Of a stretch of 17,995 bases of DNA, positions 3,380 through 17,995 are shown piece by piece (within the stretch, counting starts at the first letter, position 1; the number at the start of each line of letters is the position of its first letter). Origin of the DNA: Escherichia coli (GTDB lineage: Bacteria; Pseudomonadota; Gammaproteobacteria; Enterobacterales; Enterobacteriaceae); NCBI RefSeq assembly GCF_003334335.1, contig NZ_QOWQ01000057.1, one strand, 5' to 3'. The position numbers were made by a program, and so were the translations under genes. Under the pieces are notes generated by a model. That model saw only the letters and a list, made by a program, of their open reading frames with translations, searched no databases and was not told the origin of the DNA.

Positions 3380-4252
3380 TCAGAAGAAAATCCAGTTCCA
3401 TACCGCGCGGGCAACAGAGACCACCGTGTCACGGACGGCACGCAGAACTGTGCGTGCAACAGAGGCAACACAGACGCTCTCCACCGTGTCAAATATCCGG
3501 TCCACCGCACCGGTAAACTGTTCACGGGCCTGCCCCCGGACAGATTCCGTGCACAGCTCGTCCTGCAGGCGGGTCATCAGGGGACTGGCGGCATGGTCGG
3601 GAAGCGCTGTCATGAGCGCACTGACCAGCGTATCCAGTTCCCAGCCGGTGCGGGCCGATACGGCAACAACCGGATGTACGGGCCGGAACAGCCGGAATAC
3701 CGCATCTGTTTTTTCGCGAATGTTCTGTTCCTGTGCGGGAGAAGGCTGAATACCTGCCATATCCCATTCATGGCAGGGCTCTGTTTTGTCGGCCTGCGTC
3801 ACCACAAACAGCACCTGCTGATGTCCCCGGTGCAGTATGTGTCGCCAGAAATACTCATCCACAGACAGGGCACGGTCATCGGCTTTAATCAGCCACAGTA
3901 CCAAGTCCAGTTCAGGCAGAATGTCACGGTACAGGGCTTCATACTCTGCATCCCTGTCCCGGCTCTCGCCCACCCCGGGCAGGTCAGTGATAACCATGCT
4001 GTGACCGTGGCCACTCAGACGGAAGCGCCGCACTTCCCGGGTGCCGGCGTGAACATCACTGACCGGGGTGACCTCCCCCTGAAACAGTGCATTACAGAGT
4101 GAGGATTTACCGGCCCCGCTTTTACCCATAATGCCAATCACGGGTTCGTGACTGGTGAGTTTGCGCAGATGTTCCAGGATGTGACGGGAAAGTGAGTAAG
4201 GCAGGGAGGAGAGCGGTTTTTCAATTGCCTCAATGGCATCAGACGGATTCAT
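3380..4252 (-). CDS. yeeP: YeeP/YkfA/YfjP-family GTPase (CP4-type island GTP-binding protein), apparently intact, 290 aa
   Basis: Walker A/G1 GIMGKSGAGKSSLCNALF, G3 DLPGVGE, G4-like TQADK. Start placed at ATG 4250-4252 (MNPSDAIEAIEK...); the ORF-track start at 4291 is a GTG 13 codons upstream. Lies upstream of and co-oriented with flu. Symbol assigned from synteny and remembered family features only. Confidence 0.8.
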   Translation of the reverse strand: MNPSDAIEAIEKPLSSLPYSLSRHILEHLRKLTSHEPVIGIMGKSGAGKSSLCNALFQGEVTPVSDVHAGTREVRRFRLSGHGHSMVITDLPGVGESRDRDAEYEALYRDILPELDLVLWLIKADDRALSVDEYFWRHILHRGHQQVLFVVTQADKTEPCHEWDMAGIQPSPAQEQNIREKTDAVFRLFRPVHPVVAVSARTGWELDTLVSALMTALPDHAASPLMTRLQDELCTESVRGQAREQFTGAVDRIFDTVESVCVASVARTVLRAVRDTVVSVARAVWNWIFF

Positions 4253-4405
4253 ACATGTATTCCCGGTGAAAAAAGACAAAACCCCGCGCACCGGAAAAGT
4301 GGCGGGGGACTCACGGAGATAATATCTGCCTAAAATTATTTGGAATGCAGGTATATGCAGCTAATTTGTATCGGCTCATTAGTACAGAACTAAACCTCAT
4401 CTGAC

Positions 4406-4431
4406 AGTCCGCTCTGTGCCAAGAGCGGACT
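4406..4431. repeat. Hairpin-forming inverted repeat (10-bp stem aGTCCGCTCT / AGAGCGGACt, 6-nt loop) at the boundary of the A+T-rich islet
   Basis: 4407-4415 gtccgctct is the reverse complement of 4422-4430 agagcggac. No clean U-tract on the minus strand, so not a canonical terminator for the GIY-YIG gene. Confidence 0.4.
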
Positions 4432-4467
4432 TTGCAAAATGGGGGTTATTTCAATCAAAACGTAACG

Positions 4468-5412
4468 TCACAACCAGCCGACGCTCTCTCGCCATTTATA
4501 ATTAGTAACTTTATCATTTTCGCTTATTTTTTTAGATATAGAGCGCGGCTCTCTTCCTAGATACTCAGATATTTCTATCGGGGACAAATCAAAATCGACA
4601 AGCATGACTCTAAGTTTTTCCATTTCCTTTAAAGTCCAAGGCTTGCCATAATTTTCATAAAGAGATACCTTATGCTCCCTGATAGTTCGCTTTCTCTGAG
4701 TTTCACTTTCCCTCTGAAAAATCTCGCTTTTAAATTGTGAACGGAACTCTTTACAGAAGTTGTTATCAGTTTTTTTGTTATATAGATTGCTAAAAATAAG
4801 CTGGGATGCCGGGTCTAAATCAGGTGTGTTAATAATGAAAACTTTGACCTTTTCCATATAGGGATATTCAATTTTACCCAATATGCTTAATTGCTTTATA
4901 TTAAAAAAACCTCTCAAATCAAAAGATTTAATGAGCTTTGATTGGATTACACTTTCAATCCTGCTTGCATTTGAATAACAGTACTTTGCCATTGGAAGGG
5001 CCCATACTACCAGTTGAGGAATATATTTTTCTAATGCAATGCTCTGCCAATCAGTATCAAAGGTTTGGCTTTTTGCTAGCATGTTTTTCGGCAAATCAGA
5101 ATACATTGTGGTAGATGCCCATATCTTATAATCATTCGCCAAGGCTTGATAGTATTTTGTGTGGTTATGAATTTTATAAGCTGACATGAAGCGATAAACG
5201 TCTTCGTCGTGACCAGCGTCGTAAATTGTTCGATTTCCTCTAAGATAACCGTCGTAATGTTCGGTTATCCTTCTACCTACATTACAACTTACCCCAACGT
5301 AAACCACACGACTGAAAAGTCCTTTATGGACAATAAGATAAACTCCGCTACAGCCAGATTTCCTGGCCTCTGATAGAGAACCTAAAAATCTCCATTCCAT
5401 AATTAAATCCAT
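4468..5412 (-). CDS. GIY-YIG nuclease-domain protein with C-terminal Myb/SANT-like helix-turn-helix, 314 aa, in an A+T-rich islet
   Basis: N-terminus ...SGCSGVYLIVHKGLFSRVVYVGVSCNVGRRITEHY: GVY (aa 23-25), YVG (aa 38-40) after the spacing typical of GIY...YIG, then Arg47/Arg48, Glu51, His52. C-terminus PWTLKEMEKLRVMLVDFDLSPIEISEYLGREPRSISKKI fits the W-T-x-x-E...L...I-x-x-x-L-G-R...S-I pattern of Myb/SANT or homing-endonuclease DNA-binding modules. Composition and codon usage (A/T-ending) differ sharply from both flanks. Confidence 0.7.
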   Translation of the reverse strand: MDLIMEWRFLGSLSEARKSGCSGVYLIVHKGLFSRVVYVGVSCNVGRRITEHYDGYLRGNRTIYDAGHDEDVYRFMSAYKIHNHTKYYQALANDYKIWASTTMYSDLPKNMLAKSQTFDTDWQSIALEKYIPQLVVWALPMAKYCYSNASRIESVIQSKLIKSFDLRGFFNIKQLSILGKIEYPYMEKVKVFIINTPDLDPASQLIFSNLYNKKTDNNFCKEFRSQFKSEIFQRESETQRKRTIREHKVSLYENYGKPWTLKEMEKLRVMLVDFDLSPIEISEYLGREPRSISKKISENDKVTNYKWRESVGWL

Positions 5413-16523: not shown

Positions 16524-16608
16524 GTAAGCGTAAAGCCAATGCCGTCTGTAACACCTGCTCCTTGCAGACTAAATTAGAGCTCCTTCTAAATTAGACGGAG
16601 TTCTATTG

Positions 16609-17043
16609 ATGGATAAACCTACAGACTGGCGCTCCGGAACCCGCCGGATATTTTCTAATGAATTTAAACTTCATATGGTTGAACTGGCTTCGAAACCAAA
16701 TGCCAATGTTGCACAACTGGCCCGGGAACATGGCGTTGATAACAACCTGATTTTTAAATGGCTACGCCTCTGGCAAAGAGAAGGACGTATTTCTCGCAGA
16801 ATGCCTCCAACTATTGTAGGCCCTACAGTATCACAATCTTTTCCGGCCTCTCCGACTCTGGTTCCAGTGGAACTTATCGACACCCCGCGCTGTGCTACAG
16901 ATGCTCCTGCTCCGGAGGCATTATCAGTTGCTTGTGCAGCTTCCTGCCATGTGGAATTCCATTACGGTAAAATGATGCTGGAAAATCCTTCACCAGAGCT
17001 GCTCACGGTGTTGATCCGTGAGCTGACCGGGAGGGGACGATGA
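16609..17043 (+). CDS. tnpA: IS66-family accessory protein TnpA (orf1)
   Basis: MDKPTDWRSGTRRIFSNEFKLHMVELASKPNANVAQLAREHGVDNNLIFKWLRLWQREGR; GGAG 8 nt upstream of ATG 16609. The ORF-track start at 16606 is a TTG. Confidence 0.85.
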   Translation: MDKPTDWRSGTRRIFSNEFKLHMVELASKPNANVAQLAREHGVDNNLIFKWLRLWQREGRISRRMPPTIVGPTVSQSFPASPTLVPVELIDTPRCATDAPAPEALSVACAASCHVEFHYGKMMLENPSPELLTVLIRELTGRGR

Positions 17044-17390
17044 TTTCACTCCCATCAGGTACCCGTATCTGGCTCGTTGCCGGCGTTACTGATATGCGTA
17101 AATCCTTCAACGGTCTGGGGGAGCAAATACAGCATGTGCTGGATGATAACCCCTTCTCCGGTCACCTGTTTATCTTCCGTGGCCGACGGGGAGACACGAT
17201 TAAAATCCTGTGGGCTGATGCTGATGGTCTGTGCCTGTTCACCAAACGCCTTGAGGAAGGTCAGTTTATCTGGCCTGCGGTGCGTGACGGTAAGATATCC
17301 ATTACCCGCTCGCAACTGGCAATGCTCCTCGATAAGCTGGACTGGCGTCAGCCAAAAACATCCCGCCTTAACGCACTGACAATGTTGTAA
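17040..17390 (+). CDS. tnpB: IS66-family TnpB (orf2)
   Basis: MISLPSGTRIWLVAGVTDMRKSFNGLGEQIQHVLDDNPFSGHLFIFRGRRGDTIKILWADADGLCLFTKRLEEGQF...; ATGA overlap with the tnpA stop. Confidence 0.88.
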   Translation: MISLPSGTRIWLVAGVTDMRKSFNGLGEQIQHVLDDNPFSGHLFIFRGRRGDTIKILWADADGLCLFTKRLEEGQFIWPAVRDGKISITRSQLAMLLDKLDWRQPKTSRLNALTML

Positions 17391-17420
17391 AAAACTCCTG
17401 ACCGCATTATAAAAACGGCC

Positions 17421-17995
17421 ATGAGTCAGAAATACCTCATTCGCATCGCTGAGCTGGAAAGGCTGCTCTCTGAGCAGGCTGAAGCCCTCCGTCAGAAAGA
17501 CCAGCAACTGAGTCTGGTTGAAGAGACGGAGGCCTTCCTGCGCTCTGCACTGGCACGTGCCGAAGAAAAGATCGAAGAAGATGAACGGGAAATAGAGCAT
17601 CTGCAGGCTCAGATAGAAAAACTGCGCCGGATGCTGTTCGGAACCCGTTCTGAAAAACTGCGTCGTGAGGTTGAACAGGCTGAAGCCCTGCTGAAACAAC
17701 GCGAGCAGGAAAGCGATCGTTACAGTGGGCGTGAGGATGACCCGCTGGTTCCCCGCCAGTTGCGACAGTCGCGCCATCGTCGTCCGTTACCGGCACATCT
17801 CCCCCGTGAAATATACCGCCTGGAGCCTGAAGAAAGCTGTTGCCCGGAGTGTGGCGGTGAGCTGGATTATCTGGGGGAAGTCAGCGCAGAACAACTGGAA
17901 CTGGTGAGCAGCGCCCTGAAAGTGATCCGCACAGAACGGGTAAAAAAAGCCTGTACAAAATGTGACTGCATCGTTGAAGCACCGGCACCATCCCG
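17421..17995 (+). CDS. tnpC: IS66-family transposase TnpC (orf3), N-terminal ~191 codons, 3' end outside window
   Basis: My translation from ATG 17421: MSQKYLIRIAELERLLSEQAEALRQKDQQLSLVEETEAFLRSALARAEEKIEEDEREIEHLQAQIEKLRRMLFGTRSEKLRR...EESCCPECGGELDYLGEVSAEQLELV...KKACTKCDCIVEAPAPS; coiled-coil leader then CxxC...CxxC zinc motif typical of IS66 transposases. Absent from the ORF track because no stop is reached. Confidence 0.85.
   Translation, partial: MSQKYLIRIAELERLLSEQAEALRQKDQQLSLVEETEAFLRSALARAEEKIEEDEREIEHLQAQIEKLRRMLFGTRSEKLRREVEQAEALLKQREQESDRYSGREDDPLVPRQLRQSRHRRPLPAHLPREIYRLEPEESCCPECGGELDYLGEVSAEQLELVSSALKVIRTERVKKACTKCDCIVEAPAPS

Follow-up and report, generated by a model that had tools for sequence, protein, structure and literature searches.

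What is the cargo that lies beside yeeP on a flu island of Escherichia coli, and how did it come to be there? The question is raised by a stretch of 17,995 nucleotides (NCBI RefSeq assembly GCF_003334335.1, contig NZ_QOWQ01000057.1), here called the window and analysed at its full length, in which flu and yeeP are followed by a GIY-YIG nuclease gene, a type I restriction-modification (RM) system, a DarTG toxin-antitoxin pair, a DUF45 hydrolase gene and an edge rich in insertion sequences (IS). A sequence-only reading had named these genes, all of which are present at or near the places it gave, and had taken them for defence cargo assembled on a CP4-44-like island, with two small open reading frames (ORFs) as further candidates by association. 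Our analysis confirms the observation and partly supports its interpretation. The best explanation of the whole, which we hold with considerable confidence, is that an allele of the published RRDM defence island and a mobile cassette with a candidate GIY-YIG nuclease occupy the slot beside yeeP on a CP4-44-type flu island, joined by palindromic elements.

The RRDM island and its promoter

Judged by its sequence, the part of the window from 6362 to 16025 represents one more allele of RRDM, the seven-gene island (RptR, type I RM, DarTG2 and M48) already characterised in enteropathogenic E. coli (EPEC) E2348/69, where phage defence was shown experimentally (Zhang et al., Nucleic Acids Res 2025, PMC12255303). 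Each window protein was compared pairwise with its counterpart at the E2348/69 locus, and the features are as follows (aa, amino acids; identities are to the EPEC proteins).

6362 to 6388, plus strand: RptR operator in the RRDM promoter, predicted from published sites: TTTAGCTAA TTTAGCTAA CTTATCTAT
6411 to 6650, plus strand: rptR, RRDM repressor, 79 aa; Pfam HTH_73, E=1.9e-28; 96.2% identity (76 of 79 residues)
6690 to 9128, plus strand: hsdM, 812 aa; PADLOC MTase_I, 1426 bits; TIGR00497 above its cut-off; 97.7% identity
9128 to 10462, plus strand: hsdS, 444 aa; PADLOC Specificity_I, E=3e-131; 39.1% identity
10475 to 11131, plus strand: darT, DNA ADP-ribosyltransferase toxin; NF048013, 262.6 bits against a cut-off of 150; PADLOC DarT; 98.6% identity to DarT2
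11128 to 12195, plus strand: darG, macrodomain ADP-ribosyl glycohydrolase antitoxin; NF048014, 451.2 bits against a cut-off of 250; 100% identity
12214 to 15309, plus strand: hsdR, 1031 aa; PADLOC REase_I, 1636 bits; TIGR00348; 99.6% identity
15309 to 16025, plus strand: YgjP-like (DUF45) M48-type metallopeptidase with an HELVH motif; Pfam PF01863, E=1.6e-61; 100% identity to the EPEC M48 protein

The genes lie on a single strand in the order rptR-hsdM-hsdS-darT-darG-hsdR-M48 and form a tight operon after rptR (6690 to 16025). HsdM, HsdS and HsdR are all present and intact, DarT and DarG both score above the NCBIfam equivalog cut-offs, and the start of darG at 11128 falls inside the end of darT at 11131. 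The protein accessions of DarG and the M48 protein are identical to those in the paper of Zhang et al. When 5426 complete E. coli genomes were analyzed, the RRDM parts (RM, DarTG and M48) were each found in 247-249 of them and always together, and RM, DarTG and DUF45 are therefore not independent acquisitions. With the helix-turn-helix gene at 6411 they make up one pre-assembled unit of about 9.7 kb, and the cargo was not put together one gene at a time.

The EPEC island has the same seven genes in the same order with a TAGCTA operator upstream of rptR, and lies downstream of a yeeP-like GTPase gene on a flu-type island; IS elements are described on its flanks (PMC12255303). It differs from the window in its HsdS (39% identical), in its operator, with three perfect TTTAGCTAA repeats in place of two plus TATCTA, and upstream, where it carries IS elements and two small hypothetical genes in place of the GIY-YIG cassette. 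The divergence of HsdS implies a new recognition specificity for the window allele, whose target sequence would not be that of EPEC HsdS. The same M and R subunits circulate with at least three HsdS alleles (WP_000228013, WP_000228011 and WP_000228010).

The ORF reported as unassigned at 6405-6650 proved to be rptR, which starts at 6411 and encodes a protein that has been crystallised as a 9-kDa dimeric repressor (PMC12255303). All residues singled out in that report (E25, E58, S60, K61, L69, A72 and L74) are present in the window translation, including those for DNA binding or dimerisation (E25, E58, K61, L69, A72 and L74). In EPEC, RptR binds 9-bp direct repeats, TTTAGCTAA, with the inner palindrome TAGCTA; there are three repeats, of which the first and second overlap the -10 box, two sites suffice for repression, and TATCTA is an accepted variant (PMC12255303). 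Accepting TAGCTA, TATCTA, TAGATA and TATATA as palindromes, we found TAGCTA at 6364 and 6373 and TATCTA at 6382, all upstream of rptR. With a 120-nt probe covering three repeats, E2348/69 matched over 120 nt, while every other full-length match was 111 nt (30 of 250 matching records, spread over the set). The two-repeat operator thus looks like the common E. coli form, and the EPEC reference strain like the unusual one.

Two further observations concern this region. In two Cah-island carriers, O157:H7 NE1169-1 and NCCP 13906, rptR is annotated as a truncated pseudogene (9991-10155 and 13577-13741 of their loci) and RM and DarTG are intact, so RRDM may perhaps be de-repressed in these strains. 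Part of the RRDM leader (6203-6275, 73 bp) is 93% identical to intergenic DNA of many other E. coli genomes, and a shorter part of it matches beside or inside genes that carry the annotation “ash family protein” (P4-like).

The EPEC genes rptR-hsdM-hsdS-darT2-darG2-hsdR-M48, placed on pBR322 with 159 bp of upstream DNA, protected DH5-alpha against several phages, and hsdM was induced more than 15-fold on infection (PMC12255303). Trib, Baz, T7 and lambda-vir are among the phages that the EPEC island restricts. By analogy, the window allele would be expected to function. A single promoter would drive all genes from rptR to M48, and RptR dimers on the TAGCTA/TATCTA repeats would hold the operon low. 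The type I enzyme would cut unmethylated DNA at a sequence set by the allele's own HsdS, DarT would ADP-ribosylate thymidines of single-stranded DNA and thereby block replication, and DarG would undo this modification until infection shifts the balance.

The other small ORF (5875 to 6129, minus strand; 84 aa) has no family match and is probably not a functional gene. No match was found in Pfam, PADLOC, NCBIfam or PHROGs, and among 5.8 billion protein clusters there were only nine relatives, all from E. coli and 60-131 aa long. In the ECONIH1 allele a 1-bp insertion shifts the frame and alters the C-terminus, and in the O157 allele the start codon is lost and the frame is broken by a 4-bp insertion. 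Given that it is confined to E. coli, varies in length and is disrupted in sister alleles, the ORF is most likely non-coding. It could be argued that it encodes a functional RRDM partner, an anti-repressor or small toxin, transcribed divergently from rptR, since it carries a PGAP annotation in some genomes and sits in a conserved leader of about 800 bp that travels with RRDM. The broken frames, the variable length, the lack of any family match and of homologues outside E. coli, and its position outside the 159-bp promoter fragment that suffices for EPEC defence and regulation make such a role very improbable. Both small ORFs exist, at 5875-6129 on the minus strand and 6411-6650 on the plus strand; the first is probably not a gene, and the second is the RRDM repressor gene.

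The GIY-YIG-Myb protein and its cassette

Between yeeP and the RRDM leader the window carries one gene.

4468 to 5412, minus strand: GIY-YIG nuclease with a C-terminal Myb/SANT-like DNA-binding domain, 314 aa, in a single-gene mobile cassette (4407 to about 5596)

The match of Pfam GIY-YIG to this protein alone is weak and below threshold (E=0.017). We found 72 homologues, nearly all of 308-317 aa, in Enterobacterales, Vibrio, Aeromonas, Pseudoalteromonas, Thalassotalea and one Undibacterium. An alignment of 19 diverse members shows Y25 (in GVY), Y38-V-G40, R48, E153 and N171 to be invariant; these residues make up the canonical GIY-YIG catalytic set, here interrupted by about 100 inserted residues, and a C-terminal W-x-x-x-x-x-E-K-L-R motif is invariant as well. 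AlphaFold2 run on this alignment gave a model with a predicted local distance difference test (pLDDT) score of 91.8 and a predicted template modelling (pTM) score of 0.84. The GIY and YIG motifs, the catalytic Arg, Glu and Asn and the alpha/beta GIY-YIG fold are thus all present. A sequence search of the PDB with the family profile returned chance matches only, and the assignment needed a fold search. The nuclease call of the sequence-only reading was therefore right, to which the Myb-like DNA-binding domain is added here.

The 1.2-kb cassette is 99% identical in three contexts, the window and the strains E. coli F070 and N51. In F070 it lies next to the validated defence gene PD-T7-1 within the remnant of a lambdoid prophage, and in N51 on another flu island near a restriction endonuclease gene. 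The gene follows a BrxR-linked Mks-like operon in Thalassotalea, and is found among RES, HNH and Endonuclease_NS genes in Undibacterium. On these grounds we regard the GIY-YIG-Myb protein as a candidate stand-alone defence nuclease.

The same facts could describe a selfish, free-standing homing-type endonuclease that spreads its own 1.2-kb cassette, its defence neighbours reflecting a shared permissive slot. A GIY-YIG domain joined to a C-terminal DNA-binding domain of helix-turn-helix type recalls I-TevI and the Seg endonucleases, the 99% identity spans three unrelated contexts, the Kosakonia copy is a lone insertion, and the protein has no PADLOC match. Against this, defence genes occur in five of the six contexts examined, and the family is kept full-length across several gammaproteobacterial orders and one betaproteobacterium. 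In addition, the cassette ends coincide with the A and B palindromes described below, which also bound unrelated cassettes, so its mobility need not be its own. We therefore consider a selfish nuclease unlikely, though it is the main alternative, and prefer the candidate defence nuclease. A constant association of the gene with the palindromes was rejected, given that the Kosakonia, Thalassotalea and Undibacterium copies lack them.

A variable slot bounded by palindromes

Of the 5426 complete E. coli genomes, 4607 carry the yeeP backbone, in a median of two copies each, whereas the full window was covered to at least 80% in 193. The cargo is accessory, present in 3.6-4.6% of these genomes, as had been proposed. 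We give practically no credence to its being core E. coli content at this locus: it occurs in 193-249 of the 5426 genomes, and other genomes hold different cargo at the same position. In all seven RRDM carriers opened (NCTC86, S1-SRL-01-C, AH62, O157:H7 NE1169-1, NCCP 13906, ECONIH1 and E2348/69), RRDM lies downstream of yeeP on a flu/cah island, and the part that varies is the stretch from yeeP to the RRDM leader, which holds the following.

Window: the 314-aa gene
AH62: three genes, one of them an HNH nuclease gene matching PADLOC PDC-M68A
O157 strains: two hypothetical genes
ECONIH1: a BCCT transporter, DUF2254 and DUF6602/PD-(D/E)xK protein genes and one further gene
EPEC: IS elements and two small hypothetical genes

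Other yeeP islands have aerobactin genes or unrelated genes at this position. The slot is thus variable and rich in defence genes without being exclusive to them. The statement that every identifiable cargo gene is defence-related stands for the window, where the genes are defence-related or candidates, but does not extend to other yeeP islands, which hold aerobactin genes or transporters.

The borders of the cassette are marked by short palindromes.

4407 to 4430, plus strand: type A palindrome GTCCGCTCTGTGCCAAGAGCGGAC, which bounds the GIY-YIG cassette on the left; shuffles put the chance expectation at none
5581 to 5646, plus strand: junction element that bounds the GIY-YIG cassette on the right and the RRDM leader on the left; it holds the type B palindrome GTCCGTTCCTCGCTCAAAGCAGAC (5581 to 5604) and then a degenerate type A palindrome (about 5623 to 5646)
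5539 to 5575 and 5652 to 5688: a 37-nt inverted repeat that brackets the junction element

When the window, F070 and N51 were aligned, the homology of the cassette began inside the perfect type A palindrome and ended inside the type B palindrome, which it split as GTCCGTTCCTCGCTC|AAAGCAGAC. Homology to the yeeP backbone ends at about window positions 4346-4434. The window, AH62 and O157 share the flank on the yeeP side and diverge inside the first A site, beyond which lie three different cassettes. AH62 matches strain 144 through an A site, in which a single base differs, and the two diverge immediately after. In a pattern scan of E. coli loci, sites were found at cassette boundaries throughout the slot, in one polarity and often as a B-then-A doublet 16-18 nt apart; in the 46.5-kb locus of S1-SRL-01-C there were two sites only, both in the slot. 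Given that homology between genomes switches at the palindromes, we infer that they are recombination sites at which cargo is swapped.

An exact-pattern scan with one genome per species matched at least 120 stretches, often clustered. Among the matches listed, the hosts are Pantoea, Erwinia, Mixta, Rahnella, Citrobacter, Enterobacter, Chimaeribacter and Buttiauxella within the Enterobacterales, and beyond them Idiomarina, Amphritea, Nitrosospira and many metagenome-assembled genomes (MAGs) of Hyphomicrobiales. A distant-mode BLAST with the 86-nt junction lacked the sensitivity that a census needs. In Ca. Pantoea deserta, successive doublets have one small ORF between them (cupin, glyoxalase-like and GNAT acetyltransferase genes), and many doublets, judged by eye, have ..AAC as their left flank and GTT.. 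as their right. In a Mixta sp. locus (412-1767), a type A palindrome stands at either end of a 319-aa Era-like GTPase gene comparable to yeeP. Ahead of both palindromes runs a conserved flank of about 70 nt, which is found again on several contigs of Mixta and Ca. Pantoea deserta and for which Rfam gave nothing. Within the window Rfam returned isrC alone, and it gave no family for the junction elements. Our literature search found integron papers only, and no description of the palindrome sequence or of a hairpin/tyrosine-recombinase cassette system, which is not proof that none exists.

A possible enzyme was found in the arrays themselves. Those of F070 and N51 encode a 200-aa protein that consists of a phage-integrase catalytic domain only, and whose own gene sits inside one such junction; the F070 protein is WP_023147793.1. 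We read the flanks of nine copies of this gene (F070, N51, Rahnella, Amphritea, a Hyphomicrobiales MAG, Providencia, Idiomarina, Cycloclasticus and Sodalis). An A-like half-site, GCAGCCCTGTGCCAnnAGCGGAC, lies about 18 nt past the stop codon in six (F070, N51, Rahnella, Providencia, Cycloclasticus and Sodalis), with a close variant downstream of the Idiomarina copy, and a B-like site, GTCCGTTCTTCGCTCATAAGGGAC, lies about 40 nt before the start codon in four (F070, N51, Rahnella and Sodalis); the flanks of the Amphritea and Hyphomicrobiales copies, as extracted, look different. The pattern scan agrees for those copies that it can detect.

The recombinase family comprises at least 8000 clusters. 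Its best 120 matches are 77-95% identical and come from several gammaproteobacterial orders, and an oceanospirillale and a Hyphomicrobiales MAG have more distant copies (54-60%), which also adjoin these sites. In E. coli the gene is present in 912 of the 5426 genomes (17%); its loci vary and include some plasmids, and its sole annotation is “site-specific integrase”. Three E. coli loci carry it at 12221-12823, at 10062-10664 (strain 144) and at 10058-10660, and four of 120 loci picked solely for the palindrome encode it. In the yeeP slot of strain 144, a HEC-08 cassette (PADLOC E=4e-174; 8563-9663 of the locus) stands directly upstream of the recombinase gene, which is followed by a dynamin-family gene pair. 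The protein matches neither PD-T7-4 nor any other PADLOC protein, and its score is far below the integron-integrase cut-offs (17 bits against 265-435).

We speculate that the yeeP slot is a polarised cassette array, in which junctions of B, about 16-18 nt and A are recombination sites of this widespread tyrosine recombinase, in the manner of an integron without IntI, on islands and prophages from Enterobacterales to Hyphomicrobiales. The proposal is tentative, and we rate it as possible but rather doubtful. In E. coli, such a system would shuffle the GIY-YIG cassette, PD-T7-1, HEC-08, the HNH nuclease and restriction endonucleases in front of RRDM.

The arrays resemble integrons and clusters of attC sites lacking integron-integrases (CALINs) in their same-polarity, mostly single-ORF cassettes between imperfect palindromic sites of about 62-69 nt, in the ..AAC / GTT.. 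flanks, in the Pantoea cargo (GNAT, cupin, glyoxalase-like) and in homology breakpoints at the sites. They differ in that integrons have IntI and attI next to the array, whereas no integrase is encoded in the window and the associated recombinase is a catalytic domain of 200 aa whose gene lies inside a site; in having two self-complementary 24-mers instead of R and L boxes with an unpaired spacer; and in their occurrence in Alphaproteobacteria.

A serious rival is that the A and B palindromes are passive sequences, terminators or repeats like the repetitive extragenic palindromic (REP) elements and REPINs, which are carried along with acquired genes, the swapping being ordinary homologous recombination between short repeats. 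In REPIN/RAYT systems, REP doublets dispersed over the genome are paired with a domesticated HUH Y1 transposase, and here too there are doublets of inverted, hairpin-forming repeats, with B and A near reverse complements, and repeats that flank the gene of the putative mobilising enzyme. Many copies per genome in Erwiniaceae and Hyphomicrobiales, a covariation signal that is not significant, and the lack of a recombinase gene near most sites would all fit passive repeats. They do not readily explain why the E. coli sites are confined to one slot in one polarity, the tight arrays of single small ORFs between sites in Pantoea and Rahnella, the same 24-mer being conserved from Alpha- to Gammaproteobacteria, or the sites beside the recombinase genes (A-like just downstream in six of nine, B-like just upstream in four). 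The enzyme, moreover, has a phage-integrase (tyrosine recombinase) fold rather than that of a HUH Y1 transposase, and no HUH/RAYT gene turned up in the loci read, although no search was aimed at one. Passive repeats have, in our estimate, a little less than an even chance of being the right account.

Several points weigh against our overall explanation. The defence phenotype and RptR repression have been shown for the EPEC allele, whereas the window allele is known from its sequence, and its operator has two perfect repeats where EPEC has three (14028-14063 of the EPEC locus), although two are enough according to the published report. For the 314-aa protein, no PADLOC model matches at E<0.001, the sole match being PDC-S14 (E=0.0075), and the Kosakonia gene, a lone insertion among housekeeping-type genes, fits a selfish nuclease as well. 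No recombinase is encoded in the window, so its array could at best be acted on in trans. Finally, covariation of the two hairpins is not significant (88.5% of cells paired; the score was equalled by 42 of 500 shuffles), as the palindrome stems are almost invariant.

The island setting and its meaning

The remaining features of the window belong to the backbone and the right edge.

161 to 3082, minus strand: flu, Ag43/Cah-family autotransporter, from the ORF and the Ag43/Cah annotation in 99%-identical genomes; island backbone
3026 to 3262, minus strand: IS102/isrC RNA, in the flu-yeeP interval; Rfam RF00124 (67.8 bits; gathering score 46)
3380 to 4291, minus strand: yeeP-like GTPase gene, the last conserved backbone gene; NCBIfam small-GTPase matches; PGAP start at about 4252
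16025 to 16523, no strand assigned: IS debris, an IS1414/IS256-type end fragment (about 16025 to 16126) and an IS600/IS3 remnant (about 16369 to 16523)
16524 to 17995, plus strand: left part of an IS66-family element, from the ORFs and the matching annotation in NCTC86; tnpA 16606 to 17043, tnpB 17040 to 17390, and a transposase gene from about 17421 that continues beyond the end of the window

The island context was read from two 99%-identical genomes, S1-SRL-01-C and NCTC86. In both, the order is tRNA-Ser, DUF4942, CbtA/YeeU, DUF987, RadC-like, antirestriction, DUF932, flu, yeeP and cargo, which confirms the CP4-44-like backbone; the window itself carries flu and yeeP only. The island adjoins tRNA-Ser beside infA in these genomes, which is not the position of CP4-44 in K-12. 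The placement of isrC between flu and yeeP is the same as in K-12 CP4-44. In NCTC86, the closest complete genome, hsdM is frameshifted (18689-21126 of its locus) and yeeP has an internal stop; both are intact in the window.

GC content falls to 0.35-0.42 across the 314-aa gene and across hsdS, the pattern expected of mosaic, acquired DNA. The fragment of about 100 bp at 16025-16126 lies immediately 3' of the M48 stop codon and marks the truncated right edge of RRDM; hundreds of chromosomes and plasmids have IS1414/IS256-family ends that match it. A 142-aa ORF (15914 to 16342, minus strand) had no match in PADLOC, NCBIfam, PHROGs or Pfam; it overlaps the 3' end of the M48 gene and the IS1414-type fragment, and is probably spurious or a remnant.

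The layout of the RRDM operon recalls the prr locus, in which the EcoprrI type I RM system carries the PrrC anticodon nuclease between hsdS and hsdR. Both hold an abortive-infection-type module between these genes; prr embeds a tRNA nuclease and the window the DNA ADP-ribosylating DarTG.

The slot as a whole can be compared with the hotspots of P2/P4-like and other E. coli elements, in which interchangeable defence systems occupy a fixed position (10.1101/2021.01.21.427644; PMC9519451; PMC10121019). By strain, the yeeP slot holds RRDM, PD-T7-1-linked cassettes, HEC-08, HNH/PDC-M68A or restriction endonuclease genes, but, unlike those hotspots, it also bears non-defence cargo. Hochhauser 2023 (PMC10121019) makes no mention of a yeeP/flu-island slot, CP4, serW or DarTG.

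The region is thus largely explained already: the defence island has been published, from a locus of the same kind, and the window carries an allele of it. Of practical value are the predicted new HsdS specificity and the indication that the common E. coli operator has two repeats, not the three of EPEC. Beyond the published RRDM, the window offers an uncharacterised and widely conserved GIY-YIG-Myb protein that recurs beside validated defence genes and is a cheap candidate. The palindromic junctions are the one feature that is possibly novel. Should recombination really take place at them, they would account for the assembly of defence cargo on CP4-type islands and some prophages, and their sequence could be used to find new cassettes, some of them with defence genes, across Proteobacteria.

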